Of a stretch of DNA of 64,000 nucleotides, positions 33,333 through 51,754 are shown piece by piece (the first letter of the stretch is position 1; each line of letters begins with the position of its first letter). The translations under genes and the position numbers were made by a program. The notes under the pieces were generated by a model. The model was not told the DNA's origin. It searched no databases and worked only from the letters and a program-made list of their open reading frames with translations. The DNA is from Escherichia coli (GTDB lineage Bacteria; Pseudomonadota; Gammaproteobacteria; Enterobacterales; Enterobacteriaceae): the NCBI GenBank assembly GCA_902500125.1, contig GCA_902500125.1_4132.1. The stretch is one strand, 5' to 3'.

Positions 33333-33949
33333 CAAAATTTTATTTTGTTTTTTCCAATAGTTCCCCTACCGCGTGGGGATAGTTTCCCCGCAGTATCTGG
33401 AGTTAGATTTTTCTGAATCTGGAATCATTATCTTATAAACTGGGGGCAATGTCAACGGCCTGGACGGATATTTTTAAAAATTTTTTCAGTACTGAATTTT
33501 GGGCGTAACTATGCACCCGGTGGGCTTGAGTCTTTCTCGACTTGATGGAACTATTATACAGTACTGAAAAAATAAAGCAATACCCTGGAAGCAAAAAAAT
33601 TTTAATTAATTTGCTTGCTATCCTGGGCCGGACTATGGTACTATATTTCAGTACTGAGAAAGTGCGTTTGCCTGCTAGGGTGCGGGAGTGTATCCTTTTT
33701 TTATATCTTGAATTTTGGGCGTAATTCCGCACCCCCTGGGGTTTCCGCTTTCTCGCGTCTATGTAGTAATTATACGCTTTTTCAGGATCAAGTCAATACC
33801 TAAAAACAAAATAATTGAAAATAATTTAACGCGTTTAAACGGCCCGTAAAGCCCTGGAATGATTAGAATGGTGCAAATGTATAGCTTAGGTGTATTAATG
33901 CGTTAGAATGCGTCTGAGGCCGTTTTACGGGGTATAGGGATGATTTAGT

Positions 33950-34104
33950 GGATTGATTCAGTACTGAATAATAGTACTCCTATATAGAAAGATAGTTCCC
34001 CTGGATTGATTCAGTACTGAATAATAGTACTCCTATATAGAAAGATAGTTCCCCTGGATGGTTGCAGTACTGAATGATAGTACTGAATAATAGTTCCCCT
34101 ATAT
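33950..34104. repeat. three tandem copies (~52 bp) of GGATTGATTCAGTACTGAATAATAGTACTCCTATATAGAAAGATAGTTCCCCT
   Basis: Copies 1 and 2 identical; copy 3 degenerate. Confidence 0.75.
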
Positions 34105-34142
34105 AGAAAGAAAACTATTTTAAAAGTATTTGTAGAAAGTAC

Positions 34143-34201
34143 TTGCAAACTAAGTTTAACGGCGTATAATGTTTTACATCGAGAGCGGGAACACTTCCCG
34201 C
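34143..34201 (+). promoter_or_regulatory. early-type cassette: A-tract/AGTACTTGCAA -35, TATAAT, 5' leader hairpin GCGGGAA-CAC-TTCCCGC
   Basis: AAAGTACTTGCAAACTAAGTTTAACGGCGTATAATGTTTTACATCGAGAGCGGGAACACTTCCCGC. Confidence 0.65.
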
Positions 34202-34225
34202 TACATATTACGAGAGATTAAAACG

Positions 34226-34588
34226 ATGGCGACTCAAATCACTAAAATTATTGCTAACCTGGTTAACTTTCGCGACGAGATGAAAGATCTTCCGGCAGAA
34301 ACGGTAAAAATTCACATTTCAGCTTATCGGGAACTTATTGCAATGTTACCGCTTAAGCGTGAACAATACGCCGCGACCGTGATGCTTGATGCGATGATCC
34401 ATAAGATGATCGCCAGTGATTTAACGATGGTTTATCAGTATATGGGCGAAAATTTCGCGGTGTATAGTAAACCAGTACCAGGAATGGAAAGTACAGAAGT
34501 ATTACACGGTTTAAATTTAAAACAAGATGCATGGGATAATATGCCTCGTTTCCTGGTATGGGCTGACAGTGGCAAGATTTACGAATAA
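34226..34588 (+). CDS. hypothetical early protein (120 aa)
   Basis: Start placed after the leader hairpin (MATQITKII); the ORF-track N-terminus would span the promoter. Confidence 0.55.
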   Translation: MATQITKIIANLVNFRDEMKDLPAETVKIHISAYRELIAMLPLKREQYAATVMLDAMIHKMIASDLTMVYQYMGENFAVYSKPVPGMESTEVLHGLNLKQDAWDNMPRFLVWADSGKIYE

Positions 34589-34602
34589 GTTTTAGAAAGT
34601 AC

Positions 34603-34659
34603 TTGCAAACTAAGTTTAAAAGCGTATAATGTTTTACATCAGGTGGGGAATAGTTCCCC
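34603..34659 (+). promoter_or_regulatory. early cassette promoter + leader hairpin GGGGAATAGTTCCCC
   Basis: TTGCAA-N16-TATAAT; hairpin 34645-34659. Confidence 0.65.
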
Positions 34660-34681
34660 ACTATATAAGAGGATTAAAAAA

Positions 34682-34921
34682 ATGGCTAAATCAAAAATGT
34701 TCTTAGGTCACAAAAACAAAACTCATTGGAATGTAAGCCTTTGGATTAATAACGATGAGTCATTGTACCGGTTGGCCCAGGACTTTATTAACGATAGCAC
34801 TAATCGCAATGATGCGGCCCGTCATATGATGTTATTTTTAGAACAGACTGGACAAGATAAAACACCGGACGGATTCAAATATAGCACTACTGCGATCCGT
34901 GCGGCTATGGTTGGAATGTAA
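34682..34921 (+). CDS. hypothetical early protein (79 aa); paralog of 36724..36963
   Basis: RBS AAGAGGATTAAAAAAATG; MAKSKMFLGHKNKTHWNVSLWINN shared with its paralog. Confidence 0.6.
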   Translation: MAKSKMFLGHKNKTHWNVSLWINNDESLYRLAQDFINDSTNRNDAARHMMLFLEQTGQDKTPDGFKYSTTAIRAAMVGM

Positions 34922-34947
34922 TAGAATAGAATTTATTTAAAGTACTA

Positions 34948-34972
34948 TTGCACGGGGATAGTACTTTATAAT
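34948..34972 (+). promoter_or_regulatory. putative weak promoter (TTGCAC ... TATAAT, short spacer)
   Basis: ATTGCACGGGGATAGTACTTTATAATAG; spacing is non-canonical. Confidence 0.3.
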
Positions 34973-35009
34973 AGTGTTTTATTCATACACCAACGATAAG
35001 GGCAACAGC

Positions 35010-35276
35010 ATGAATATTAAGTATTTTGCGACGCGTGAACAAGCTCGGATCGCCGCTCGCCAGGACGGGGCAACGTTTAAAGATATGGGCGTACAATCGG
35101 AACGTGGTAAACGTTGGGCCATTGTAAAGCGTAGTACAGCCAGATCATTACAGTACTGGTTAGCGGCGTTAAAAAGTCCCGATAGTGTATCGCGTCGAGT
35201 GGTAGAAATAAAGCTCGACCGAAAGGGCAACCGCGTGACCGTGTACCGTACTAAAAAGATTGCAGTACTTGAATAA
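35010..35276 (+). CDS. hypothetical early protein (88 aa); paralog of 46942..47337
   Basis: MNIKYFATREQARIAARQDGATFKDMG...DRKGNRVTVY shared with 46942. Confidence 0.55.
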   Translation: MNIKYFATREQARIAARQDGATFKDMGVQSERGKRWAIVKRSTARSLQYWLAALKSPDSVSRRVVEIKLDRKGNRVTVYRTKKIAVLE

Positions 35277-35284
35277 AAAGTACT

Positions 35285-35341
35285 TGCACCGTACTGATAA
35301 AAGCGTATAATGTTTTACATCGAGAGCGGGAACTCTTCCCG
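35285..35341 (+). promoter_or_regulatory. early cassette promoter + leader hairpin GCGGGAACTCTTCCCGC
   Basis: TTGCAC-N15-TATAAT; loop variant of cassette 1. Confidence 0.6.
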
Positions 35342-35363
35342 CCTATAACCTGGAGTAATGAAA

Positions 35364-35594
35364 ATGACTAATATGTATATGACTGAAGTTAAAACCGTAA
35401 AAGATACTACCACGAATAAAACTACTTACTTACAGCGGATCTGTGGTGTATGGCAACGTATCAGCAAATCAAAGTACTTTAAATTAACATCATATGCAAA
35501 CCGTTCGGATTCATTCAGTACTGAAATAAAAGGTAATAAAGTACACCAATACGGCACTTATTATTATTACAGCCTGGACGCGATTGCAGTATAA
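35364..35594 (+). CDS. hypothetical early protein (~76 aa)
   Basis: RBS CTGGAGTAATGAAAATG, second ATG chosen. Confidence 0.5.
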   Translation: MTNMYMTEVKTVKDTTTNKTTYLQRICGVWQRISKSKYFKLTSYANRSDSFSTEIKGNKVHQYGTYYYYSLDAIAV

Positions 35595-35624
35595 GCAGTT
35601 TACAAATCTTTACAATTGCCGGTA

Positions 35625-35653
35625 TTGACTTATTTTGTCAGTACTGGCATAAT
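35625..35653 (+). promoter_or_regulatory. promoter TTGACT-N17-CATAAT with no ORF for ~370 nt
   Basis: TTGACTTATTTTGTCAGTACTGGCATAATG; the transcript would cover intergenic elements A and B. Confidence 0.45.
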
Positions 35654-35843
35654 GTATTCATTGGCAGATAAGCCGTAGCCCATAGGGTGCGGGAGTGTAT
35701 CTATAGAAAAATTAGTTTAGTATAGTTACAATTGTGCACCCGGTGGGTTAGCTGTTGTCATGGGGTATATTATGCCAGTACTTGATAATGCTGTCAATAC
35801 TTTTTTTTAATATTCAGTACTGAAAACTATTTTTAAAAAGTAC

Positions 35844-35871
35844 TTGTAAACTATGTTTAAAGGCGTATAAT
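35844..35871 (+). promoter_or_regulatory. early promoter (TTGTAA-N16-TATAAT), upstream one of a tandem pair
   Basis: AAAAAGTACTTGTAAACTATGTTTAAAGGCGTATAATG. Confidence 0.6.
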
Positions 35872-35880
35872 GTTTTACAT

Positions 35881-35960
35881 CAGGACGGGGAACGAAATAA
35901 GTAACTTCCCGTTAAGTAGCCCAGGAGTAAGGCACACGAAAAACTCCCCTGATAAAATAG
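35881..35960 (+). ncRNA. ~80-nt structured leader/candidate small RNA between tandem promoters (copy 1)
   Basis: CAGGACGGGGAACGAAATAAGTAACTTCCCCGTTAAGTAGCCCAGGAGTAAGGCACACGAAAAACTCCCCTGAT; duplicated at 46021-46100 with stem-preserving changes. Confidence 0.35.
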
Positions 35961-35961
35961 T

Positions 35962-35989
35962 TTGACAATAGAAAGTAAAAGCGTATAAT
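35962..35989 (+). promoter_or_regulatory. promoter TTGACA-N16-TATAAT (downstream of the tandem pair)
   Basis: TTGACAATAGAAAGTAAAAGCGTATAATAC. Confidence 0.6.
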
Positions 35990-36021
35990 ACTTACATCAA
36001 CTACTGAATGAGGGTTACAAA

Positions 36022-36633
36022 ATGAAAACTATCACTACTACTACTTTTGTTATGGCTTTTTCTGAACTGAACGCAGAACAAAAAACGGCGGCTATCGAAC
36101 TGGTTCGGGATCGTGAGCGTTCATGTGAGGATAATTTCTTTGCTGAGGGCGTTATCGAGTACTATAAAGAAACAGTACTACCAGAATACGGCATAGATGA
36201 AGCTGAATTGCAATACAGTGGTTTTTGGTCGCAAGGTGACGGTGCATCAATCAGTACTAACCACGTTGACGCTGAGAAGTTTTTACGCAAGGTTAAGGCG
36301 TTAACGAAATATCGTTCAATCCGTCACCTGTTGAACGAGGATGATTTAGAAATGAGTGTAGAACGTTTCCAATCACGCTACGCACACGAAAACACGGTAG
36401 GCGGTTGCGTTGATACTCGCTACACTGATTTAACTGTAAAACAGGCGGCATTGGCTGAGGATCTGGAAAACTTACTGACTGATGCGATCCGTGAATTATC
36501 TCGTAAGTTGTACCGTGATTTAGAGAATGCATATGAGGATCAATTCACTACTGAAAACATTACTGCACTGATTGAGGGTAACGAATATCAATTCAATGTT
36601 ATTGATGGCGTAGTGGAATCAATCGAATATTAA
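36022..36633 (+). CDS. acidic hypothetical protein (203 aa)
   Basis: ORF track; RBS TGAGGGTTACAAAATG. Confidence 0.65.
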   Translation: MKTITTTTFVMAFSELNAEQKTAAIELVRDRERSCEDNFFAEGVIEYYKETVLPEYGIDEAELQYSGFWSQGDGASISTNHVDAEKFLRKVKALTKYRSIRHLLNEDDLEMSVERFQSRYAHENTVGGCVDTRYTDLTVKQAALAEDLENLLTDAIRELSRKLYRDLENAYEDQFTTENITALIEGNEYQFNVIDGVVESIEY

Positions 36634-36645
36634 TTTAAAAAGTAC

Positions 36646-36704
36646 TTGTAAACTAAGTTTAAAAGCGTATAATACTTTACATCAAGGCGGGGAGTGGTTC
36701 CCCG
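36646..36704 (+). promoter_or_regulatory. early cassette promoter + leader hairpin CGGGGAGTGGTTCCCCG
   Basis: TTGTAA-N16-TATAAT. Confidence 0.6.
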
Positions 36705-36723
36705 CTCAAACGAGGATTTAAAA

Positions 36724-36963
36724 ATGGCTAGTACTAAAACTTACAACGGACACAAAAACAAAACTCATTGGAATGTAAGCCTTTGGATTAATAACGGTGA
36801 GTCATTGTATCGGCTTGCTCAAAGTTGCATCGCACAAAGTAGAACTAAAGATATTGCTGCGGAATGTATGTACCGCAGATTAAAAGCCAACGGTACTACT
36901 ACAACGCCGGACGGCTTTAAGTATAGCACTACTGCGATCCGTGCTGCAATGGTTGGAATGTAA
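36724..36963 (+). CDS. hypothetical early protein (79 aa); paralog of 34682
   Basis: RBS ACGAGGATTTAAAAATG. Confidence 0.6.
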   Translation: MASTKTYNGHKNKTHWNVSLWINNGESLYRLAQSCIAQSRTKDIAAECMYRRLKANGTTTTPDGFKYSTTAIRAAMVGM

Positions 36964-37020
36964 TATTCAGTACTGAGATAATGGCGGGTAATAGTTCCCG
37001 CCTTTACTGAGGGTTATCTA

Positions 37021-37281
37021 ATGAGTAAAGTAATTAGCTATACAGCACTAAGCAAGTCATTATCTATTAGCCAGTGCACCGATGGTTATTGGCTTTATGA
37101 TGAAACGCGTGGAATGAATTTAGCTATGCGTGCAAAAACTGCTGAGGCGGCGTATCTTGAGGCACTGGAATACTACCAGGAACGTTTAACGGAAGTAGAA
37201 GAAGATTATAAAAGCCTCAAAGCGAAAGTAGATCATTTCGTCGGTCAATTCATCGAGGAAGACGACGATAAACAATACTGA
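37021..37281 (+). CDS. hypothetical protein (86 aa)
   Basis: Preceded by hairpin GGCGGGTAATAGTTCCCGCC and RBS TGAGGGTTATCTAATG. Confidence 0.55.
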   Translation: MSKVISYTALSKSLSISQCTDGYWLYDETRGMNLAMRAKTAEAAYLEALEYYQERLTEVEEDYKSLKAKVDHFVGQFIEEDDDKQY

Positions 37282-37291
37282 AAAAAAGTAC

Positions 37292-37350
37292 TTGCAATTA
37301 GTTTTCAGTACTGTATAATGGTTTACATCAAAGGGAGAAATGGTTCTCCC
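37292..37350 (+). promoter_or_regulatory. early cassette promoter + leader hairpin GGGAGAAATGGTTCTCCC
   Basis: TTGCAA-N16-TGTATAAT (extended -10). Confidence 0.65.
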
Positions 37351-37369
37351 TGGTAATGAGGAAAATAAA

Positions 37370-37591
37370 ATGGCTAATATCACTACTCTTTCCCAACTGG
37401 AAGCACTGGTGAAATCTATGCGGGAACATGCCGACAAAATCGGCGTACAAGATCCAGCCGTTTGCTTCTGCGACGAATTGAATGATGATACCCTGGTAAT
37501 AGCAGAAGTCCAGGACGTTTCTAACTATTCATCGCGTTACACTGGCGGCGTAGCAAATAAAGGCGACTTCTGTTTATACCTTACAAAATAA
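37370..37591 (+). CDS. hypothetical early protein (73 aa)
   Basis: RBS TGAGGAAAATAAAATG after the hairpin. Confidence 0.55.
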   Translation: MANITTLSQLEALVKSMREHADKIGVQDPAVCFCDELNDDTLVIAEVQDVSNYSSRYTGGVANKGDFCLYLTK

Positions 37592-37595
37592 CAAC

Positions 37596-37626
37596 GCGGG
37601 GAGATAATAACTCCCCGTTACTTTTT
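37596..37626 (+). terminator. rho-independent terminator (CGGGGAG-ATAATAA-CTCCCCG + T-tract)
   Basis: Hairpin followed by TTACTTTTT. Confidence 0.65.
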
Positions 37627-37768
37627 CAGTACTGAATCATTTAATAGACGGATCTCGGCACCCGGTGGGTTAGTGACTGTTTCGTCTTGATGTAGTAATT
37701 ATGCCAGTACTGGATGCACTTGTCAACAACTATTTTTCAAATACTTTTTATTAAAATACTTGCAATTA

Positions 37769-37825
37769 GTTTTTAAACGCGTATAATGTTTTGCATAGGG
37801 GGAGCGGTTCCCCCTGGTAACTAAG
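37769..37825 (+). promoter_or_regulatory. early cassette promoter + leader hairpin GGGGGAGCGGTTCCCCC
   Basis: TTGCAA-N16-TATAAT. Confidence 0.6.
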
Positions 37826-37835
37826 GAATAATAAA

Positions 37836-38072
37836 ATGCTTGAACAAATCAAATCAACGACTTCGAATGTAACGGGAACGGTAGCACACTTTACTAGTGA
37901 TGAATCGCGGGGCGTACCCTATTGTGCTGTACATGTAAACACTGATGGCAACTACTGGTTTACTGTTTACGGATCATATTCCTTTGGACGACCAGGGCAT
38001 CAAAAAATTCTGGATAAAGTACAGCCAACGGGTAAAAATATCACTGCTGAAATGTTTTATAAAAAATCATAA
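37836..38072 (+). CDS. hypothetical early protein (78 aa)
   Basis: RBS CTAAGGAATAATAAAATG. Confidence 0.6.
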   Translation: MLEQIKSTTSNVTGTVAHFTSDESRGVPYCAVHVNTDGNYWFTVYGSYSFGRPGHQKILDKVQPTGKNITAEMFYKKS

Positions 38073-38077
38073 AGTAC

Positions 38078-38136
38078 TTGATAATAGTTTTTAGTACTGT
38101 ATAATATTTTACATCGCAAGGGGGAGCGGTTCCCCC
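38078..38136 (+). promoter_or_regulatory. early cassette promoter (TTGATA-N16-TGTATAAT) + leader hairpin GGGGGAGCGGTTCCCCC
   Basis: Same hairpin sequence as the preceding cassette. Confidence 0.6.
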
Positions 38137-38156
38137 TGGTAACTAAGGATAATCAA

Positions 38157-38456
38157 ATGAAAATTGCAATCATCGCCCTGGCTTTATCTGTTTCCTCTTT
38201 CGCTGTTAATGCGTCATTAGATGTAAGTAGTGAAAAATTCATTCAGTGCACTGTTGCAATGACCGATGAAAGTACTGGCGAGATTGTATTAAAGGATCTG
38301 GAGATTCAGCCGGAAGCATTTAAAAACGGCCCGTTCCATGAAGAAGACGAAAACGGTAGCACGACAATTTATTATGATGCCAGTACTAAACGCGGTTCGG
38401 TCACTGTAATGGATACTGAGAAAGTAACGCATACCGGCGTTATTAATTGCCGTTGA
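38157..38456 (+). CDS. secreted early protein with signal peptide (99 aa)
   Basis: MKIAIIALALSVSSFAVNASLD; RBS CTAAGGATAATCAAATG. Confidence 0.6.
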   Translation: MKIAIIALALSVSSFAVNASLDVSSEKFIQCTVAMTDESTGEIVLKDLEIQPEAFKNGPFHEEDENGSTTIYYDASTKRGSVTVMDTEKVTHTGVINCR

Positions 38457-38477
38457 TAGATACTACGGGGTAACATC

Positions 38478-38708
38478 ATGACTAAGCGAATTGTTTTACT
38501 TAACGAAAGCAGTACTACACAACTACTTAACGCCGTGCATTATGATATTGAAACGAGCGTTAATCTTATCAGTACTGTAGTACTGTTGGACACTGGAAAG
38601 GTCGCCAATGATAAAGCGATTGCAGGTATATTAACGGATCTTGAGCCTGGTAGCAGTGCACCAATAACGTTAAATGGTAAAGTGTTTAATATTTTACTCA
38701 CTGATTAA
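38478..38708 (+). CDS. hypothetical protein (76 aa)
   Basis: ORF track; weak RBS; no promoter of its own. Confidence 0.5.
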   Translation: MTKRIVLLNESSTTQLLNAVHYDIETSVNLISTVVLLDTGKVANDKAIAGILTDLEPGSSAPITLNGKVFNILLTD

Positions 38709-38714
38709 GTACAT

Positions 38715-38737
38715 AGCCCACCTGGTGGGCTTTTTTG
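38715..38737 (+). terminator. rho-independent terminator (AGCCCACC-T-GGTGGGCT + T6)
   Basis: Perfect stem followed by TTTTTTG. Confidence 0.7.
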
Positions 38738-38790
38738 TTTTTGTAGTATCGTAGTACTGAGATACTTTGAAAATAGTTTTAAGAAAGTAG

Positions 38791-38819
38791 TTGACATTAC
38801 CGCAGAAAAGCGTAGAATG
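38791..38819 (+). promoter_or_regulatory. promoter TTGACA-N17-TAGAAT with ~110-nt structured leader
   Basis: Leader 38825-38925 is related to the 35881/46021 elements (ACGGGGA..AAGTAG..AGTAAG..ACGAAAAACT). Confidence 0.55.
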
Positions 38820-38941
38820 TATTACATCAAGACGGGGAGCACTAAGTAGACCGCCAGTAAGTCGAACGAAAAACTGGACACGTCGAGAAAACTTTGATAC
38901 ACTAATAAACGTAAACTAAACTTTAATTGAGGATTTATAAA

Positions 38942-39424
38942 ATGGCTAATGTAAAATCATTCATCAAAGCACTGGTAGCAAATGAAACTAACGTCGCGGC
39001 TGAGATCCTGGCTGAACTGGATAACGATACCATGAAAGCGGTACGCAATAATTTTAACATCGCGTACAGTACTGCGAAAGAACTACAAGCAAATAAAGCG
39101 GCAGAGATTGAAGCAGCGAAGGCGGCCCGTGAAGCAGAACTACAAGCAACAATTGAAAGTATCCAGGCGGCAGTAGTTGGGCTGGATCTGGAAGTAGTTA
39201 CCGAGATGGCACAAAAAGCCCTGGCGGTTAAGTACGGGGAAGATAAGCCGGAATCTAAGCCTAAAAAATGGATTCAAGAACGTGTAGCGGTAGTACTTGA
39301 TAACGGGGAAGAATATCTGATTCCGGTGCGTGGTAACTGCATTGCGGTAGTACTGGATGCTATCAAAGAAAGCGGATTGACTCGCGAGGAATGGATCGAA
39401 GCTCATCGCAAAGTTGAAGCATAA
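38942..39424 (+). CDS. Ala/Glu-rich coiled-coil early protein (161 aa)
   Basis: RBS ATTGAGGATTTATAAAATG. Confidence 0.6.
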   Translation: MANVKSFIKALVANETNVAAEILAELDNDTMKAVRNNFNIAYSTAKELQANKAAEIEAAKAAREAELQATIESIQAAVVGLDLEVVTEMAQKALAVKYGEDKPESKPKKWIQERVAVVLDNGEEYLIPVRGNCIAVVLDAIKESGLTREEWIEAHRKVEA

Positions 39425-45429: not shown

Positions 45430-45436
45430 AAAGTAC

Positions 45437-45835: not shown

Positions 45836-45848
45836 AAATAATTGAAAA

Positions 45849-45880
45849 AGGGATTGACTCCGGTCAGTCCCTTTGCTATT
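45849..45880 (+). terminator. class T2 terminator/promoter element
   Basis: AAAAAGGGATTGACTCCGGTCAGTCCCTTTGCTATTATATACGCATAG. Confidence 0.65.
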
Positions 45881-45982
45881 ATATACGCATAGAAACAAAT
45901 TAGCCCACCGGGTGCATAAATGTATCTATTGTTTGCTGGTGGCTAGTACTATCAAGTACTGAAAACTATTTTTAAAAAGTAC

Positions 45983-46010
45983 TTGCATTGTAATTAGAAT
46001 CAAGTATAAT
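45983..46010 (+). promoter_or_regulatory. early promoter (TTGCAT-N16-TATAAT), upstream of tandem pair
   Basis: Part of a ~170-bp block duplicated from 35823-35990. Confidence 0.6.
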
Positions 46011-46020
46011 GTTTTACATC

Positions 46021-46100
46021 AGGACGGGGAACGAAACAAGTAACCCCGTTAAGTAGTCCAGGAGTAAGACATACGAAAAACTCCCCTGATAAAATAGTTT
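46021..46100 (+). ncRNA. structured leader/candidate small RNA (copy 2)
   Basis: Copy of 35881-35960 with stem-compatible substitutions (ACGGGGAACGAAACAAGTAACCCCGTT). Confidence 0.35.
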
Positions 46101-46126
46101 GACAATAGAAAGTAAACGAGTATAAT
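46099..46126 (+). promoter_or_regulatory. promoter TTGACA-N16-TATAAT (downstream of pair)
   Basis: TTGACAATAGAAAGTAAACGAGTATAATAC. Confidence 0.6.
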
Positions 46127-46159
46127 ACTTACATCAACCACTGATAAGGAAACATTAAA

Positions 46160-46435
46160 ATGCGGATTCTACTGACAGCTAACGAAATCGAACAAGTACT
46201 GACTACTAACCTGGAACAATGGAAACGTGATGCAGATATCCAGGCGGTTCAATGGCTTAACGATAAGTTAACGCCGGATGACTTAAGCAAGATTGTAGAT
46301 CCTCAATTCTACGAAGATATTCACGACACGGCTTTAAGCGTCGAGGATGTACTTGATAAGCATTACATTAATACCGATTTACAGGTTTACGGGCGTAAAA
46401 ACTTTATCACTATTCACGACATTTACAATACTTAA
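46160..46435 (+). CDS. hypothetical early protein (91 aa)
   Basis: RBS TAAGGAAACATTAAAATG. Confidence 0.6.
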   Translation: MRILLTANEIEQVLTTNLEQWKRDADIQAVQWLNDKLTPDDLSKIVDPQFYEDIHDTALSVEDVLDKHYINTDLQVYGRKNFITIHDIYNT

Positions 46436-46438
46436 GTA

Positions 46439-46497
46439 TTGACAAAGTATCTTAGTACTGTATAATAGTTTACATCAAGGCGGGGAAATGGTTCCCC
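46439..46497 (+). promoter_or_regulatory. early cassette promoter (TTGACA-N16-TGTATAAT) + hairpin CGGGGAAATGGTTCCCCT
   Basis: Consensus promoter. Confidence 0.65.
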
Positions 46498-46522
46498 TCC
46501 TAACAAAGAGAGAGAAATAAAA

Positions 46523-46846
46523 ATGGCTATGATCCTTACCCAGAAAGTGGAATTGAAAATTGTAACCTCCTTTGACATTAAAGTTAATCGCTGGACTGAT
46601 CGGAACGGCAATACTTACCACTCTTGCTACGTGTCTGCGTTAATTGGCGACCGCTGGGAAGACCTGGGACACGAAACCTTTACATACGGTTACGGTACGC
46701 AAGGCGAATACACTGGTTTGGAGATCATTAAAGAAACCGTTATAGGTTTCAACCCGAAAGAAAAAGTTATGCACCGCATCGAAAAAGAGATTAACAAAGA
46801 AATAACAGTTCGCTACTACGATGTAAAACGTAAGAAAGACATGTAA
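46523..46846 (+). CDS. hypothetical early protein (107 aa); paralog of 40543
   Basis: RBS AGAGAGAGAAATAAAAATG. Confidence 0.6.
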   Translation: MAMILTQKVELKIVTSFDIKVNRWTDRNGNTYHSCYVSALIGDRWEDLGHETFTYGYGTQGEYTGLEIIKETVIGFNPKEKVMHRIEKEINKEITVRYYDVKRKKDM

Positions 46847-46868
46847 TAGAATCCATTTAAAGTACTAT

Positions 46869-46897
46869 TTGACATTGCCCAGATAGTACTTTATAAT
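46869..46897 (+). promoter_or_regulatory. promoter TTGACA-N17-TATAAT
   Basis: TTGACATTGCCCAGATAGTACTTTATAAT. Confidence 0.6.
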
Positions 46898-46941
46898 AGA
46901 CTCTAACTTGTAGTACTAACTCAACTAATAGGATGTATACC

Positions 46942-47337
46942 ATGATTACTAAATTCTACGCTACCCGTGAAGCTGCCCGTATTGTTGCACGCGAGGAAGG
47001 AGCAGCATTTAAAGACATGGGAACGACAGCACCGAAAGGTCAACGCTGGGCCGTACAGTTCAAAGAAATCTCTGATATTGTGAATTCACCTGAGCCAGTA
47101 CTAACAGCAGCAGAACTAAAACGAGCGGATATGCTGGCGGCAATACTTGACGCACAAGATGAGTTTATCGCTGATTCTGATATCAAAGTACAGGTAAACC
47201 ACACCGCATGGACTCACGCGGATCACCTGGCAAACCTTAAGCGTCCAAGTGAACTGATTCGCAACCAGAAAGAGATCCGACATGATCGTAAGGGTAATCG
47301 TGTAACAGTATACAGTAAACGCCGCCAGGTTATCTAA
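46942..47337 (+). CDS. hypothetical protein (~131 aa); paralog of 35010
   Basis: MITKFYATREAARIVAREEGAAFKDMG...DRKGNRVTVY; RBS TAGGATGTATACCATG. Confidence 0.55.
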   Translation: MITKFYATREAARIVAREEGAAFKDMGTTAPKGQRWAVQFKEISDIVNSPEPVLTAAELKRADMLAAILDAQDEFIADSDIKVQVNHTAWTHADHLANLKRPSELIRNQKEIRHDRKGNRVTVYSKRRQVI

Positions 47338-47359
47338 TAACTTGCAGTACTAACAACAC

Positions 47360-47385
47360 GGCGGGATCAGTTCCCGCCTTTTTTA
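47360..47385 (+). terminator. rho-independent terminator (GGCGGGA-TCAG-TTCCCGCC + T6)
   Basis: Hairpin followed by TTTTTTA. Confidence 0.7.
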
Positions 47386-47398
47386 TAGGACAAACAAA

Positions 47399-47653
47399 AT
47401 GATTAAGGTTCAACTATATAAAGATAACATCTTACGGGTACACTATAAAGCACCGAAGAGAATCATCACAAAGGCCGTACAGCTTGCTAATGAGTTTATT
47501 AATGGTAACCTATTACCAAGGAAGTTAAGCAACGGGAAACTGCGTGTAATCGACGTGGACACTAACAACAGGATAGTAATCGAGAACACAGGAAAAATAA
47601 ACCTTTATGAGCATCAACAATACAATAAGAAAATAAAACTAATATCACGTTGA
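47399..47653 (+). CDS. hypothetical protein (84 aa)
   Basis: RBS ATAGGACAAACAAAATG. Confidence 0.55.
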   Translation: MIKVQLYKDNILRVHYKAPKRIITKAVQLANEFINGNLLPRKLSNGKLRVIDVDTNNRIVIENTGKINLYEHQQYNKKIKLISR

Positions 47654-47679
47654 CAGTACTCAAATGTTTTAGTATTATG
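47650..47679 (+). promoter_or_regulatory. promoter TTGACA-N18-TATTAT (duplicated block, copy 1)
   Basis: TTGACAGTACTCAAATGTTTTAGTATTATG. Confidence 0.5.
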
Positions 47680-47706
47680 TACACATACCAACACGGGAGA
47701 AACAAA

Positions 47707-47925
47707 ATGAAATTATCTAAAATCGAAAAGAAAACTATTGATGAAGCAGTTAAGCACGGTTATACCTTTCGTAATGATTCACATTTTACCAATTTTCAAC
47801 AGGGGTATCGTACTATTAAAAAACTAATTGACAAAGGTTTATTAGTTGAAGTCAATAATGGGAACGGTATCGAGTATCAGCCAACCCAAGACGCATTATC
47901 TTTAAAGAAATATAATATTATCTAA
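47707..47925 (+). CDS. hypothetical protein (72 aa)
   Basis: RBS ACGGGAGAAACAAAATG. Confidence 0.55.
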   Translation: MKLSKIEKKTIDEAVKHGYTFRNDSHFTNFQQGYRTIKKLIDKGLLVEVNNGNGIEYQPTQDALSLKKYNII

Positions 47926-47953
47926 TTGACAGTACTCAAATGTTTTAGTACTA
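47926..47953 (+). promoter_or_regulatory. promoter (duplicated block, copy 2)
   Basis: TTGACAGTACTCAAATGTTTTAGTACTAT. Confidence 0.45.
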
Positions 47954-47983
47954 TATGTACATACCAACACGGGGAAAAACAAA

Positions 47984-48226
47984 ATGATTACTTTAGAAAA
48001 ACGTATCAAAGAAACTACATCGCTGGTGGAATTGTTAACAGTACTCAAATGTAAAACAACACCATTCAGCACGCCGGACTTTATTAATATGGTTGATGTT
48101 AATGGTCGCTATCGTATCACGGTCGAACAAGGAGCGGCGAAAGTATTCAGTACTAAAAACACGAAGGAAGTGATCCACGCCGTTAATGTTAAAAAAGTAG
48201 TTGCCATTGATAGTAAAGTACTGTAA
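47984..48226 (+). CDS. hypothetical protein (80 aa)
   Basis: RBS ACGGGGAAAAACAAAATG. Confidence 0.55.
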   Translation: MITLEKRIKETTSLVELLTVLKCKTTPFSTPDFINMVDVNGRYRITVEQGAAKVFSTKNTKEVIHAVNVKKVVAIDSKVL

Positions 48227-48257
48227 TATAGTTTCATTAACTCAAGGAGAACATGCA

Positions 48258-48842
48258 ATGCGTAATTATACTAAATTCATCCGTACACTGTCAGAAATGG
48301 AAACCAACAAAGAGATCCTTTCAGCTTGTCGGTTAGCTGGCCTGGAGATCATCGGTGCTGGTTCTTCCCGTATAGTTTTCGCTTTAAATGATCGGTTAGT
48401 GATTAAGGTCGCGAATTGTGATGCGGGTGTAGAACAAAATGAAACTGAATGTAAGGTATGGAATTTTTTAGACTATGACCGCCCTCAGTTGAAACAGTAC
48501 TTTGCAAAGGTGCATATGCATTTATGCGATCCTGATAATATGTTTATCGTTATGGATCGGTTGAGTACTGCAAGCAAAGGTAGTGTGAAGCACGTAAACG
48601 CGTGCAATGAATTAAAGTACAATATTAAACGTAATGCAATCGAACGCCAGCACCGCTTTGCTGATGCACTACAACACGTCGATGATACATTATCAACACT
48701 AACGATAAGAGATATCAGAAAACAGAATATCGGCCAGGATCGTAATGGCCTTATTAAAGTACTTGATTACGGTTTAACCTGCAATATCTGGAATCAGTAC
48801 TATAAAAAGCGTGATGTGGCAGCAAGTAAGGTAACACGATAA
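48258..48842 (+). CDS. small protein-kinase-like protein (~194 aa)
   Basis: RBS AAGGAGAACATGCAATG; IIGAGSSRIVF (G-loop), VIKVA, IRDIRKQNIG (catalytic-loop-like), KVLDYG (DFG-like). Confidence 0.6.
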   Translation: MRNYTKFIRTLSEMETNKEILSACRLAGLEIIGAGSSRIVFALNDRLVIKVANCDAGVEQNETECKVWNFLDYDRPQLKQYFAKVHMHLCDPDNMFIVMDRLSTASKGSVKHVNACNELKYNIKRNAIERQHRFADALQHVDDTLSTLTIRDIRKQNIGQDRNGLIKVLDYGLTCNIWNQYYKKRDVAASKVTR

Positions 48843-48855
48843 AAAAGATTAAAAA

Positions 48856-48890
48856 AGGGATTGACTCCGGTCAGTCCCTTTGCTATTATA
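48856..48890 (+). terminator. class T2 terminator/promoter element
   Basis: AAAAAAGGGATTGACTCCGGTCAGTCCCTTTGCTATTATATA. Confidence 0.65.
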
Positions 48891-48983
48891 TATCCATTGA
48901 GAGATAACTCACTGACCCATAGGGTGCGGAAGTGTATCTATTATATAAGTATTCAGTACTGAAAACTATTTTTTAAAAAGTAC

Positions 48984-49046
48984 TTGCATTGTACTTAGAA
49001 TCAAGTATAATGTTTTATATCGAGAGGGGGAAATGGTTCTCCCTGG
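48984..49046 (+). promoter_or_regulatory. early cassette promoter + hairpin GGGGGAAATGGTTCTCCC
   Basis: TTGCAT-N16-TATAAT; preceded by element A. Confidence 0.6.
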
Positions 49047-49065
49047 TATATTAAGGAATAAAATC

Positions 49066-49287
49066 ATGACTACAATGACTTGCATTTACGCTTCCAATCG
49101 TCTGAATGATGCGGCCTTTAATGTTGATTCAGAATATCAATGTTATCGGGATGAAAATAAAAAAGTTTTTGTAGTTGATAATAATGGTTTCCATATTGAA
49201 TTACAATCCGGCTTCACTGGTGTTGATGGTAAATCAGTATGGGGCGTACAGGATGATAAAGGTACATATCATTTTAAACGTAATTAA
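49066..49287 (+). CDS. hypothetical early protein (73 aa)
   Basis: RBS TTAAGGAATAAAATCATG. Confidence 0.55.
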   Translation: MTTMTCIYASNRLNDAAFNVDSEYQCYRDENKKVFVVDNNGFHIELQSGFTGVDGKSVWGVQDDKGTYHFKRN

Positions 49288-49291
49288 GTAT

Positions 49292-49353
49292 TTGACAAAG
49301 TATCTTAGTACTGTATAATAGTTTACATCAAGGGGAGAATAGTTCTCCCCGAT
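49292..49353 (+). promoter_or_regulatory. early cassette promoter (TTGACA-N16-TGTATAAT) + hairpin GGGGAGAATAGTTCTCCCC
   Basis: Consensus promoter. Confidence 0.65.
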
Positions 49354-49371
49354 ACTAAAAGGAATAAAATC

Positions 49372-49776
49372 ATGACTACTACTAATCTTGCTCGGAATAT
49401 CGCCAACGATAAAAATCATGCTGCAATGGTCGCTGGTTACATTGAAGCTATGCAATTCAGTACTGTACATAATGATAACGGCGATTACCTGGAAGATTAT
49501 GAGTTATCTGATGAAGCACGTCAAGCGGCGGTGATTGCATGTTCTCGCTTCATTGAGAAACACGGTAATGATCTGGAAGTAGTTCGCGGTATGTTTATTG
49601 ATTACGGTTATGAGCAAGCTGGTCATGATCTGTTCCTTACCCGCGAAGGTCACGGAACTGGTTTTTGGGATCGTGGTTTAGGTCACTATGGCGATGTATT
49701 CACGAAGTACTGCGAAGAAATCAACGTTTGCGATCCCTATGTAGGCGATGATAACTTAATCTATATGGGCGAATAA
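49372..49776 (+). CDS. hypothetical early protein (134 aa)
   Basis: RBS AAAAGGAATAAAATCATG. Confidence 0.6.
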   Translation: MTTTNLARNIANDKNHAAMVAGYIEAMQFSTVHNDNGDYLEDYELSDEARQAAVIACSRFIEKHGNDLEVVRGMFIDYGYEQAGHDLFLTREGHGTGFWDRGLGHYGDVFTKYCEEINVCDPYVGDDNLIYMGE

Positions 49777-49782
49777 AAGTAT

Positions 49783-49843
49783 TTGACAAAGTATATCAGT
49801 ACTGTATAATAGTTTACATCAAGGGGAGAATAGTTCTCCCCAA
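49783..49843 (+). promoter_or_regulatory. early cassette promoter (TTGACA-N16-TGTATAAT) + hairpin GGGGAGAATAGTTCTCCCC
   Basis: Near-duplicate of the 49292 cassette. Confidence 0.65.
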
Positions 49844-49863
49844 TACTAAAAGGAAACAAAATT

Positions 49864-50136
49864 ATGTCCAGCTACTCCGCTACTATGATCATTAAAGATA
49901 TGAACGGTAATCCTACTTCTGCTGGTGGATCATTTGGAAATATTAACTTAGATGGGCGGTTATCCATGCAATCAGCCATCGATGCAGCGAAAGAAGTTTT
50001 TAAGAATGAATGTACTGTTAGTAAGCTGGATTATATGGGTTTCGCTATCGAGAAAACTACTCGTTTTGTGAACTACAAAAATCCACTGATGATTGATACT
50101 AACCTGAAAGCTAACGAAGTGGGGTACTTATTATGA
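49864..50136 (+). CDS. hypothetical early protein (90 aa)
   Basis: RBS AAAAGGAAACAAAATTATG. Confidence 0.6.
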   Translation: MSSYSATMIIKDMNGNPTSAGGSFGNINLDGRLSMQSAIDAAKEVFKNECTVSKLDYMGFAIEKTTRFVNYKNPLMIDTNLKANEVGYLL

Positions 50137-50324
50137 CAGTAGAAGAAGTAAAAAAAGTACTGGCAGTACTACGATATCATAATCATTGCAAGGTGAAGAA
50201 TGATCCTGATTATCTTGATTCATCCCTGGAGGAAGACACCTTGAACGCTATAAGCCATATGCAGACATTAGCAAAGCGTATGACTGAAAAGAACATGCCG
50301 GACTATATCGGAAATAAAATTTAA
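50133..50324 (+). CDS. hypothetical protein (63 aa)
   Basis: ATGA-coupled. Confidence 0.5.
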   Translation: MTVEEVKKVLAVLRYHNHCKVKNDPDYLDSSLEEDTLNAISHMQTLAKRMTEKNMPDYIGNKI

Positions 50325-50331
50325 AAAGTAC

Positions 50332-50393
50332 TTGCATTGTAGTTAGATTAACGTATAATGTTTTATATCGAGAGGGGGAAATGGTTTCCCCTC
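50332..50393 (+). promoter_or_regulatory. early cassette promoter + hairpin GGGGGAAATGGTTTCCCC
   Basis: TTGCAT-N16-TATAAT. Confidence 0.6.
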
Positions 50394-50411
50394 AAGTCCA
50401 GGAGATACACA

Positions 50412-50675
50412 ATGAACACTATCGAAATCACTATCAATGCACACGTATACGACAACGTAGTACTGCAAACTACTATGACCGCTAATGATACCAGTACTTT
50501 GCGGAATACTGTTATTAGTGCCGTATGTGCTGCAATCGGTGATGTATCCCTGGAAAATGCAGAACATATCAACAACGGTTTCACTATGTGCAAGCGTGAT
50601 AACGCAAAACATATCATCGTGGAAGGTTACGGCGGTGTAGAATTTAATGTTTATATGAAAAAAGTACTTGCATAA
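50412..50675 (+). CDS. hypothetical early protein (87 aa)
   Basis: RBS CCAGGAGATACACAATG. Confidence 0.55.
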   Translation: MNTIEITINAHVYDNVVLQTTMTANDTSTLRNTVISAVCAAIGDVSLENAEHINNGFTMCKRDNAKHIIVEGYGGVEFNVYMKKVLA

Positions 50676-50724
50676 TAACTAAAACAAAGTATAATGTTTT
50701 GCATAGGGGGAGATATCCTCCCCC
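50668..50724 (+). promoter_or_regulatory. early cassette promoter + hairpin GGGGGAGATATCCTCCCCC
   Basis: TTGCAT-N16-TATAAT; overlaps the 3' end of the upstream gene. Confidence 0.55.
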
Positions 50725-50742
50725 ACTAAAAGGAGTAATAAA

Positions 50743-50967
50743 ATGGCTAACTTTGATGAACTGATGCGGGAAGTAGCTAACCTGGCAGAAGAGAAGAAAT
50801 CATTCGATTCTATCTATAACACCGCTCACCGTGATTCAGTACTGGCATGTAACCAGGATCAAAAAGATGAACTAATCGCCACCTATCATGAAGCATGGAA
50901 GTACTACCGACAATGGGAGAAAGAAGAAAGTGAGTCTACCATTGACGGCCTCAATAATCTAATCTAA
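50743..50967 (+). CDS. hypothetical early protein (74 aa)
   Basis: RBS AAAGGAGTAATAAAATG. Confidence 0.6.
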   Translation: MANFDELMREVANLAEEKKSFDSIYNTAHRDSVLACNQDQKDELIATYHEAWKYYRQWEKEESESTIDGLNNLI

Positions 50968-50986
50968 AAGTTTTATTTCAGTACTA

Positions 50987-51016
50987 TTGACATAGCTTGA
51001 TAGTACTGATGTAATA
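50987..51016 (+). promoter_or_regulatory. class-2 promoter (AGTACTATTGACATAGCTTGATAGTACTGATGTAAT)
   Basis: TTGACA-N17-TGTAAT. Confidence 0.5.
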
Positions 51017-51043
51017 ACTTTACTAACTACAAGGGGAAACATA

Positions 51044-51301
51044 ATGGATCAGTTCACACAATATCGGGTAAATCCTCAAGCTATGGCCTACGTAGAAGAC
51101 CATAAAACGTTACCAGTACTGCAACCAGTTAAAGGCCATATCTATCGTGCAATGTCGTGGTGTGCGGCCCAGGATGGCTATAAAACCGTAGCCGTTGGTA
51201 TGTACTGCGGTAATGGTGAATGGTTTGATCCAAATAATCCGGTATCCATTGACAGTACTGAAAAAATGAAATGGGCCGACTACATCGAAGATATTTCATA
51301 A
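51044..51301 (+). CDS. hypothetical protein (85 aa)
   Basis: RBS AAGGGGAAACATAATG. Confidence 0.55.
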   Translation: MDQFTQYRVNPQAMAYVEDHKTLPVLQPVKGHIYRAMSWCAAQDGYKTVAVGMYCGNGEWFDPNNPVSIDSTEKMKWADYIEDIS

Positions 51302-51308
51302 AAACTAT

Positions 51309-51370
51309 TTGACAGTACTAACCAGTAATGTATAATGTTTTACATAGAGCGGGGGAATAGTTCTCCCGCC
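51309..51370 (+). promoter_or_regulatory. early cassette promoter (TTGACA-N16-TATAAT) + hairpin GCGGGGGAATAGTTCTCCCGCC
   Basis: Consensus promoter. Confidence 0.65.
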
Positions 51371-51391
51371 AATAGTTTGGAGTAAAACATT

Positions 51392-51592
51392 ATGTCTATC
51401 GCTATCGCCCTGGTTGAAGTACTGAAAGAAGCTAAAGCCAACCAGATCGACGTAAAGATCCAGGAACTACAAAACGGCTTAATCGGCTGTACTTGTACCG
51501 CTGGTGGAGCGGCAGACTATCGAGAACACGAATCACTCGAATCACTGGTTCGGTATCTTACCATGATCGTTGATGATTGGAGAATCATCTAA
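51392..51592 (+). CDS. hypothetical early protein (66 aa)
   Basis: RBS TTGGAGTAAAACATTATG. Confidence 0.55.
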   Translation: MSIAIALVEVLKEAKANQIDVKIQELQNGLIGCTCTAGGAADYREHESLESLVRYLTMIVDDWRII

Positions 51593-51608
51593 CAAAAAAG
51601 AATAAAAA

Positions 51609-51640
51609 AGGGATTGACTCCGGTCAGTCCCTTTGCTATT
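51609..51640 (+). terminator. class T2 terminator/promoter element
   Basis: AAAAAGGGATTGACTCCGGTCAGTCCCTTTGCTATTATATACGCATAG. Confidence 0.65.
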
Positions 51641-51754
51641 ATATACGCATAGACAAAAACTAGCCCACAGGGTGCATAGGTGTATCCAAAATATATAGTT
51701 AATAACGGTGAGTAACTATCTGCTGGTGGAACTAAAACTATTAATAAAAAAGTA

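Follow-up and report, generated by a model that had tools for sequence, protein, structure and literature searches.

A promoter-coupled, multi-copy motif of the terminal repeats of Rak2-like jumbo phages, and its reading as a candidate RNA family

What does a short intergenic sequence contribute to a phage when it recurs, each time close behind a promoter, in one part of the genome? The sequence considered here, element A, was noticed in a 64,000-nucleotide stretch of DNA filed under Escherichia coli (assembly GCA_902500125.1, contig GCA_902500125.1_4132.1), which was analysed as a whole and is called the window below. The window belongs to an Asteriusvirus jumbo coliphage of the 121Q/PBECO4 group and is 90-96% identical to UE-S1, SHEFM2K, PBECO4, G17 and others. 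Comparison of these and more distant phages indicates that element A is a promoter-coupled, transcribed and orientation-specific module, confined to the direct terminal repeat (DTR) and conserved across genera.

The repeat itself stood up to scrutiny, but not in the form first written down. The initial annotation gave its consensus as CCCATAGGGTGC(N3)A(N)GTGTATCTAT; this literal 27-mer finds no match even at three mismatches, because it carries one surplus base between GGGTGC and TGTATC. The core CCCATAGGGTGC, at up to two mismatches, occurs 10 times in the window against 1.8 expected, and the corrected consensus, CCCAYNGGGTGC-N5-TNYRYCY, also 10 times where chance predicts 0.04, a count attained by none of 100 shuffles. 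Written as RNA, the corrected motif is RCCC-AYN-GGGUGC-N5-U-N-YRYCY. The claim of at least seven copies holds, with a total of 11 in the window, seven on the plus strand and four on the minus strand (Table 1). A repeat search united the seven plus-strand copies in one 33-nt family at 33669, 35676, 42519, 43915, 45901, 48913 and 51661; these are the sites originally listed, whose exact positions had been displaced by 1-11 nt. The four minus-strand copies were missing from that list (cores 33513-33525, 33729-33741, 35736-35748 and 37658-37670) and are located by GGGTGC anchoring at 33518, 33734, 35741 and 37663. A sequence-only model built from the 11 copies recovered just those 11 in the window (E<10). 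The copy at 33.67 kb is degenerate (CTGCTAGGGTGC). A spacer said to be shared in four cases was found again at 35816, 42561, 45955 and 48953; it is ~33-60 nt long, has a 1-nt insertion in the 48953 instance, and at 35816 is separated from its plus-strand copy by an intervening minus-strand twin.

All 11 copies stand at a similar distance from a sigma70-type promoter. The -10 box ends 20-27 nt before RCCC in 11 of 11, and 10 of the 11 promoters score 9-11 of 12, several with an extended -10 TG. The element had been placed between a terminator and the next cassette promoter, a description that holds only roughly: in four copies the preceding terminator hairpin has a promoter within it, and it is the spacing from the -10 box that all 11 have in common. 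For comparison across phages we collected 103 distinct copies by a pattern scan of IMG/VR followed by model and nhmmer searches (73 matches, 186 kb of jumbo-phage loci), to which annotated genomes were added; they come from phages of Escherichia, Klebsiella, Cronobacter, Pectobacterium/Erwinia and Yersinia. Of the 92 regular copies of all phages taken together, 91 have a -10-like hexamer 18-30 nt upstream, with peaks at 20 and at 26-27 nt. Transcription would start about 7 nt 3' of the -10 box, usually at the A of CAU or CAA, and the motif is modelled to span about +3 to +50 of the predicted transcript. From its 5' end the unit comprises a hairpin, SL1, with a stem of 4-5 bp and a purine-rich loop of mostly 6-7 nt, a linker of 2-4 nt (CUA, UUG, CAA or UUA), RCCC-AYN-GGGUGC, five variable bases and U-N-YRYCY-RU. 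Upstream of copies 7, 9, 10 and 11 lies a near-identical composite terminator/promoter, AAAGGGATTGACTCCGGTCAGTCCCTTTGCTATTAT, whose module AAAGGGATTGACTCCGGTCAGTCCCTTT-GCTATTAT combines a 12-bp terminator hairpin (A3G3-loop-C3T3) with a TG-extended promoter, TTGACT-17-TATTAT, the 5' arm of the hairpin being the -35 box. The palindromic hexamer AGTACT is a separate feature of the region. It occurs 278 times in the window against ~22 expected from base composition, most densely at 28000-52000, just 5' of many -10 boxes (CAGTACTGTATAAT, CAGTACTGGCATAAT), beside -35 boxes (AAAGTACTTGCA) and also 25-50 nt 3' of most element A copies; a regulator might bind there, or the hexamer could be an intrinsic part of the promoters.

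The compensatory changes in SL1 argue that the element A unit is transcribed, and in the orientation of SL1. Across the 103 distinct copies each of the four SL1 pairs shows changes on both sides, 90% of cells being paired; the covariation score is 0.385, where shuffles give 0.130 (none of 500 reached 0.385) and slid partners no more than 0.071. The stems are diverse, including UGAG/CUCA, UGGC/GCCG, AGACA/UGUCU, AGCA/UGCU, ACCG/CGGU, GGAG/CUCC, ACAAA/UUUGU and UCCA/UGGA among others. A model-free scan asked for a hairpin that closes 0-5 nt before RCCC and found one in 79% of 75 copies, compared to a mean of 37% and a maximum of 51% when the leaders were shuffled 200 times.

The core that follows SL1 behaves differently, being held almost base by base. 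In the 92 regular copies CCC, A, GGG, U and G are invariant. The base before CCC (-7) is a purine in 93% and lies opposite the U after GGG (GU 49, AU 45), and RCCC can pair with GGGU in every copy as a second hairpin, SL2, with a 4-bp stem, a 3-nt loop and a predicted stability of -3.7 +/- 0.3 kcal/mol. The tail is constrained too (position 11, U in 96%; 13, Y in 100%; 14, R in 100%; 15, Y in 90%; 16, Y in 97%; 17, Y in 91%), and where it varies it still allows a wobble or a Watson-Crick pair with the invariant GGGUGC(R). A helix between GGGUG and the downstream YRYCY, H2, is paired at 87.8% compared to 31-51% when slid, all of its variation being one-sided. Since G-U pairs are possible on the transcribed strand only, a constraint at the RNA level is favoured. 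H2 is predicted at -8.8 to +4.1 kcal/mol and is more stable than SL2 in 44 of 92 copies, and the two compete for GGGU. The core may thus be modelled as a two-state hairpin, or YRYCY may be constrained for another reason. Pairing of the leader or SL1 loop (AGAUA) with the tail (UAUCU) appeared in several minimum-free-energy folds and was rejected, cognate pairs being no better than non-cognate ones (permutation p = 0.12). A mini open reading frame was likewise set aside: AGGGUG has an AUG or GUG 5 nt on in under half of the copies, and frames are not conserved. As for termination within element A itself, a G+C-rich hairpin with a U-run is formed in the window only by the degenerate copy (33677-33696), the tails of the others being mixed A/U; a few relatives have a terminator-like hairpin of element A (locus L068 at 8955, locus L039 at 3177).

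Where the copies lie is as distinctive as what they contain. The Escherichia phage vB_Ec-M-J has an annotated DTR of 21,525 bp, and its position 1 corresponds to window position 32398, the end of its DTR falling at about 53090; the 11 copies of vB_Ec-M-J are all at 1078-20132 of this DTR, with none in the next 8.5 kb. A scan of the complete 121Q genome (348,532 bp) bore out the expected enrichment, 11 of 11 copies lying at 136.5-153.9 kb, in 5% of the genome. In fENko-Kae01, a Klebsiella aerogenes phage of another genus, about 10 of 10 copies are at 983-18790 of a 19,736-bp DTR defined by PhageTerm, and the next 6 kb hold none. In a close relative, fEgEco12, the DTR has been experimentally confirmed (PMC13070987). 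Between the window, 121Q and vB_Ec-M-J the copies keep synteny, and even distant genera have ~10-11 per DTR. Leftward copies and twins cluster in the left DTR; rightward copies follow one another every 2-3 kb in the right part. Within the DTR stretch every small gene has its own promoter, and beyond ~53 kb the genes are tightly packed; we infer that the DTR is a pre-early, host-takeover region. Just past it, at 53296-58143, lies an array of small, tightly packed paralogous genes with a conserved coding motif (..TTAGGAACAAACTATCAAGA..).

Contigs that are putatively GAP32, CBB and fHe-Yen9-04 also carry copies, as does one further contig that we take to be RaK2. No copy was found in PA5oct, a more distant Pseudomonas relative; non-coding RNAs have been defined by RNA-seq in the DTR of PA5oct, and the lack of a copy means that these data cannot serve as evidence here. 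A near-consensus 26-mer matched none of 185,579 bacterial and archaeal genomes, and a host or prophage origin was rejected on this ground; in metagenomes the 26-mer turned up in 17 stretches, of which two belong to contigs 361,872 and 366,160 bp long. Searching the whole window with Rfam 15 gave nothing at gathering thresholds, and in E-value mode 33300-52000 yielded two unrelated weak matches elsewhere in the region; ARAGORN found no tRNA or tmRNA gene in the window. The element is unannotated in the public records of UE-S1, 121Q, vB_Ec-M-J, CRJP21 and fENko-Kae01, and the papers on CBB, PA5oct and fEgEco12 cover promoters or terminal repeats with no mention of the motif.

What follows the element varies, and was classified for 101 distinct copies, of which ~25 stayed unclassified, most apparently with weaker CTTGCA-type promoters next. 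At least 30 of the 101 have the next cassette promoter 3' of the element. At least 15 have an intrinsic terminator of their own, ending 63-69 nt after GGGUGC in 12 of the 15 and 82-94 nt after it in three; a terminator 63-69 nt past GGGUGC predicts a discrete RNA of ~100 nt, and for copy 6 of the window the predicted RNA is of this size (37692->37592, minus strand). A further 31 copies form convergent twins, in which the distance from GGGTGC to GCACCC takes three values only: 51 nt (20 copies), 69 nt (9) and 62 nt (2). In the twin of copies 4 and 5, the RNA read through 35660-35762 folds into a single long hairpin (-42.7 kcal/mol, z=-6.3, on the plus strand; -28.8 kcal/mol, z=-5.2, on the minus strand). 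Units lie between a terminator and the next promoter in both orientations, and the genes downstream of plus-strand copies belong to six unrelated PHROGs, which rules out a gene-specific leader or riboswitch. In the twins of the 69-nt (and 62-nt) class we also noted a central palindrome, AATGAT(N)ATCATT (L001 ~8050-8075, L011 ~1290-1330, L021 ~340-380 and L089 ~6100-6130); one instance, AAATGATAATCATT, presumably agrees with the Fur box core of E. coli, and half-sites ATGATTCAGTACTG recur in the window, e.g. at 32290-32390 and 37625-37640.

We tentatively favour a model, short of probable as a whole, in which a multi-copy family of short RNAs, sharing element A as their conserved 5' domain, would be made from the sigma70 promoters of the DTR in Rak2-like jumbo phages and would bind a conserved protein in trans through their core. 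Our confidence is higher for the RNA family than for the full statement, and lower for the mode of action. The initial annotation had offered a small-RNA 5' region among its suggestions, and this is supported by the sigma70-type promoter 5' of each copy, by the compensatory changes of SL1 in the transcribed orientation and by the terminators of at least 15 related copies. In this model host sigma70 RNA polymerase would produce the RNAs, which could end in three ways: at their own terminator (~100 nt), as a long leader into the next cassette gene, or in a mirror-image twin, whose fixed spacing would yield complementary RNAs or one long hairpin. The core would act as a two-state hairpin or as a platform for sequence-specific protein binding, and the RNA would, as an abundant species, bind or titrate a conserved host or phage protein. 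A trans-acting, protein-binding role is favoured by orientation independence, the lack of a common downstream gene, the stand-alone units, the base-by-base invariance and the lack of complementary targets in phage or rrnH RNAs. On the last point, neither the core nor its complement is found at any further place in 121Q, and the core pairs with rrnH rRNAs and tRNAs no better than shuffled cores do; as far as 121Q and the rrnH RNAs go, seed pairing with phage or host stable RNAs is therefore unlikely. A likeness of SL2 to the anticodon stem of tRNA-Ile(GAU) (CACCC/GGGUG) is apparently a coincidence. More speculatively, and in our view unlikely in this particular form, element A would define a new class of phage RNA: about 10-20 near-identical structured RNAs, transcribed from the DTR, would capture a conserved host factor with their invariant, possibly two-state core, as an RNA-based takeover or anti-defence measure that needs no translation. 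Candidates for such a factor would be a defence nuclease, an RNase, an RNA chaperone or RNA polymerase itself. If the DTR, which is present twice per genome, enters the cell first, the RNAs would appear within seconds of entry, and mirror-image twins would add a double-stranded RNA (dsRNA) or hairpin form of the decoy.

Several points weigh against this interpretation. The SL1 counts use an alignment fitted to an SL1-only model, although the model-free test concurs. Moreover, a 5' hairpin is general in all cassette transcripts of the region, and SL1 is therefore evidence for transcription and orientation, not for the core acting as RNA. SL2 lacks two-sided covariation since its stem never varies, and the two-state model is weak because the predicted H2 is unstable in roughly one copy out of two. 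What is said here of start sites, RNA ends and abundance is prediction, and the partner protein is hypothetical. Finally, most plus-strand copies lack a terminator of their own and are placed where a cis-acting leader would sit.

Among known systems, multi-copy small RNAs and protein-sequestering RNAs (Qrr1-5, CsrB/CsrC and RNA anti-CRISPRs) resemble the proposed family in having paralogous genes with a shared domain, their own promoter and, in some, their own terminator. They differ in that element A has no similarity in Rfam, GGA-loop repeats are not conserved, and many of its copies form leaders or twins and no discrete gene. An antitoxin RNA of the type III, ToxI-like kind, with tandem repeats directly 5' of a toxin, is a poor match: the copies are 56 nt to 7 kb apart with their own promoters, and about 1.5 kb separates the ParE-like gene of the region (47399-47653) from the copy closest to it. 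In SPO1, the T5 pre-early region and the long terminal repeats of Kayvirus, host-takeover modules reside in terminal redundancies. The present repeat is likewise full of small genes with strong host-type early promoters; we know of no description of a repeated promoter-proximal RNA motif in those phages.

The position of the plus-strand copies raises a different possibility, namely a cis-acting elongation element like lambda nut or HK022 put, in which the leader RNA would modify its own RNA polymerase for read-through of terminators or Rho sites, or SL2/H2 would act as a pause or attenuator. The lambda and HK022 elements are short structured RNAs just 3' of several early phage promoters, with a small hairpin of purine-rich loop and a conserved segment. 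HK022 put consists of two stem-loops in ~70 nt, just 3' of an early promoter, and acts in cis without a protein; element A agrees with it in position and rough size. The element is always within about 50 nt of the predicted start site, as a two-hairpin leader with a purine-rich first loop. Five plus-strand copies lie 2-3 kb apart in the right two-thirds of the DTR, four of them directly 3' of a strong promoter-containing terminator, so that each gene block would restart with an element-A transcript. In a few copies H2 is followed by a U-run, forming a terminator with which SL2 would compete, and GGGUGC-N5-UG presumably fits the G-10/Y-1/G+1 elemental pause consensus. However, lambda nut and HK022 put have two copies each and element A has 10-11, and about one third to one half of the units face away from genes or terminate 30-40 nt on, an arrangement hard to reconcile with an antiterminator. 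The hexamer GCTCTT of boxA (CGCUCUUA / GCUCUUUA), GCUCUU in RNA, is absent from -40 to +60 of 103 of 103 distinct copies. Nor is there a counterpart of boxB, which has a 5-bp stem and a GNRA-like pentaloop: SL1 loops are of 6 nt (23 copies), 7 nt (13) or 8 nt (4), and the SL2 loop is of 3 nt. There is no match to an Rfam family, and no N-, Q- or RfaH-like gene was identified; a Pfam scan of ten DTR proteins and sixteen PHROGs protein scans turned up nothing N-like, though no search was aimed at N. Taken together, we regard a nut- or put-like role, the foremost of the alternatives, as unlikely, while keeping it in view.

The initial annotation had also named a binding site for a phage or host regulator, and the invariant core could bind a protein either as RNA or as DNA. 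Alternatively, then, the conserved unit might be read as DNA. A protein site just 3' of the promoters (a roadblock, a repressor site or an architectural element), or a signal for packaging, end duplication or replication of the DTR, would accord with eleven bases that are invariant across genera, as is typical of a protein site, and with restriction to the DTR; SL1 would then be the usual protective 5' hairpin. The twins, as ~100-bp palindromes with a fixed spacing of 51 or 69 nt, the 69-nt class having a second central palindrome AATGATnATCATT, point the same way. What makes this explanation distinctly unlikely is the nature of the variation: changes in the tail and in the closing pair of SL2 almost solely preserve G-U or G-C pairing on the transcribed strand. 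In addition, position and orientation are tied to the promoter in every copy, and the core is not a DNA palindrome.

The twins also invite the proposal that the pair is the unit and single copies are half-units. Face-to-face promoters about 125 bp apart would then form a convergent-transcription or dsRNA device, serving as an insulator, a place of polymerase collision, an RNase III site or a source of dsRNA. The restriction of the 31 twin copies to three spacings, the single hairpin formed by twin RNA (z values above) and the presence of a twin no more than ~1.3 kb from the left DTR end in 3 of 3 phages scanned (the window, vB_Ec-M-J and fENko-Kae01) are consistent with this, as are a kinase-like DTR gene with a weak Pkinase match below the Pfam cut-off and 121Q gp205, a different gene outside the DTR that is annotated, by annotation only, as a kinase regulating RNase III/RNase E. 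Yet two thirds of the copies are single and equally conserved, and SL1 covaries within each arm, which a simple palindrome would not need; we consider the device improbable.

The initial annotation had also suggested a recombination hotspot, a claim that gains no support from homology breakpoints against the two close relatives CRJP21 and vB_Ec-M-J. These breakpoints fall in eight zones (36.7/37.3, 40.0/40.2, 40.5/40.9, 41.8/42.0, 43.34/43.38, 45.13/45.15, 46.43/46.53 and 49.38/49.78 kb), 8 of 8 at ordinary cassette promoters and 0 of 8 at an element A core. These cassette promoters form a family, AAAGTACTTGCA-N16-TATAAT-gttttACAT, with 23 copies at 34136-52237, each followed directly by a covarying G+C-rich hairpin in the 5' untranslated region (GGGGAGAA..TTCTCCCC, with variants) and then by a Shine-Dalgarno sequence. 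PeSLs are composite terminator/early-promoter motifs that mediate shuffling in T4-like phages (PMC2839356, PMC4122927). As with PeSLs, conserved intergenic modules stand here among the small open reading frames of a plastic early region, and the module 5' of copies 7, 9, 10 and 11 has the stem-loop and sigma70 promoter of a PeSL, with the difference that its -35 box is inside the hairpin. Element A is an extra conserved transcribed module 3' of the promoter and is not itself a PeSL; given where the breakpoints lie, the PeSL concept fits the cassette promoters and the composite module, not element A. That element A is a recombination joint or a selfish mobile promoter cassette, like a PeSL or a miniature inverted-repeat transposable element, is thus very improbable: the region is a mosaic of small open reading frames, a PeSL-like composite terminator/promoter borders four copies and either orientation occurs, but the breakpoints avoid the element, the 11 copies are syntenic in three phages, the number per DTR is about 10-11 in distant genera, and no transposase or target-site duplication was noticed in a search that was not systematic.

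Returning to the preferred reading, that of a family of DTR-encoded RNAs, it bears on phages of practical interest, since Rak2-like jumbo phages (121Q, PBECO4, RaK2, GAP32, CBB and others) are candidates for phage therapy. Their ~20-kb terminal repeats, annotated merely as rows of hypothetical genes, also carry a conserved promoter-coupled motif, predicted to act as RNA, in about ten copies. This motif is kept across genera with under 30% genome nucleotide identity, which implies an important early function, and it provides a concrete test object of ~55 nt. The analysis separates two layers, cassette promoters as recombination joints (as are PeSLs in T4-like phages) and element A as a distinct and probably functional RNA module. 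If the RNA is indeed a decoy or a polymerase-modifying leader, RNA-based host takeover would extend to a new group of phages. The general kind, a structured non-coding RNA or leader encoded by a phage, is already known; what is new is the combination of many copies, restriction to the DTR, locking to a promoter, an invariant and possibly two-state core, and twins of fixed spacing.

Table 1. Element A copies of the window and the terminal-repeat stretch that contains them; an arrow gives positions in the direction of transcription.
Feature	Position	Strand	Promoter	SL1 or leader	Core	Tail, downstream sequence and remarks
Stretch matching vB_Ec-M-J DTR (1-21525)	32398..53090					holds all 11 window copies
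Copy 1 (degenerate)	33615..33697	+	weak, TTGCTA-18-TACTAT		CCTGCTAGGGTGC, 33671-33683	hairpin AGGGTGCG/TGTATCCT then T7, terminator-like, 33677-33696; convergent twin of copy 2
Copy 2	33715..33796	-	TTGACT-16-TATAAT, 33796->33769	5' hairpin CGC/GCG	CCCCAGGGGGTGC, 33741->33729	tail TTACGCCC; twin of copy 1, GGGTGC-GCACCC distance 51 nt
Copy 3	33499..33580	-	TTGCTT-16-TATAAT, 33580->33553	AGUC-GAGAAA-GACU	GCCCACCGGGTGC, 33525->33513	tail TTACGCCC; predicted transcription toward left end of terminal repeat
Copy 4	35625..35704	+	TTGACT-17-(TG)CATAAT, 35625-35653	UGGC-AGAUAA-GCCG	GCCCATAGGGTGC, 35678-35690	tail GTGTATCTAT
Copy 5	35722..35797	-	TTGACA-17-(TG)CATAAT, 35797->35769		ACCCACCGGGTGC, 35748->35736	convergent twin of copy 4
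Copy 6 (predicted stand-alone small RNA gene)	37592..37726	-	TTGACA-17-(TG)CATAAT, 37726->37698	GAC-GAAACA-GUC	ACCCACCGGGTGC, 37670->37658	AGUACUG, then bidirectional terminator 37618-37596
Copy 7	42459..42547	+	composite terminator/promoter 42459-42494; at 42466-42494, hairpin GGGTTGACTCCGGTCAGTCC holding -35 TTGACT, TG-n-TATTAT	CCAG-CGAUACA-CUGG	GCCCATAGGGTGC, 42521-42533	shared spacer, then cassette promoter 42589-42616
Copy 8	43861..43943	+	TTGACA-17-(TG)CATAAT, 43861-43889	GACG-AGAA-CGUC	ACCCATAGGGTGC, 43917-43929	tail ATGTAACTAT; upstream of DksA-like gene 44186-44443
Copy 9	45847..45929	+	composite terminator/promoter AAAGGGATTGACTCCGGTCAGTCCCTTT + GCTATTAT, 45847-45882	short leader UAG-AAACAAA-UUA	GCCCACCGGGTGC, 45903-45915	
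Copy 10	48854..48941	+	composite terminator/promoter 48854-48889	UGAG-AGAUAA-CUCA	ACCCATAGGGTGC, 48915-48927	shared spacer, then cassette promoter
Copy 11	51607..51689	+	composite terminator/promoter 51607-51642	leader UAG-ACAAAAA-CUA	GCCCACAGGGTGC, 51663-51675	tail GTGTATCC

Other features of the terminal repeat were noted in passing. The 84-aa protein encoded at 47399-47653 has a ParE-like toxin domain (PF24732, E = 4.6e-11), and its gene is preceded by that of a 134-aa phrog_8127 protein (46933-47337), which has a paralogue at 35010-35276. With tblastn, the ParE-like and the phrog_8127 protein each matched all six of the related locus groups that were searched, a result that points to the terminal repeat encoding a conserved pair of toxin-antitoxin type. 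The kinase-like DTR protein mentioned above (194 aa, 48258-48842; Pkinase, E = 0.0035, below the Pfam cut-off) has conserved counterparts in RaK2 and in fENko-Kae01, that of fENko-Kae01 bearing the annotation putative protein kinase.

Near the predicted left end of the DTR, a 43-bp stretch at 32592-32634 (L104 86-128), ~200 bp inside that end, is 93% identical to the corresponding site of fENko-Kae01 and might serve as a signal for packaging or for recognition of the end. The intervals 33120-33330 and 33949-34054 hold short direct repeats, GGATGGCTAGA / GACGGCTAAACGGCTAGA, at ~0.7-0.9 kb from the same end, together with a perfect 53-bp tandem duplication. Beyond the predicted genome end, the leftward-transcribed region at 30383-31951 has repeated units of ~30-70 nt (..ATATGCATAAAGAATACTACAC..).

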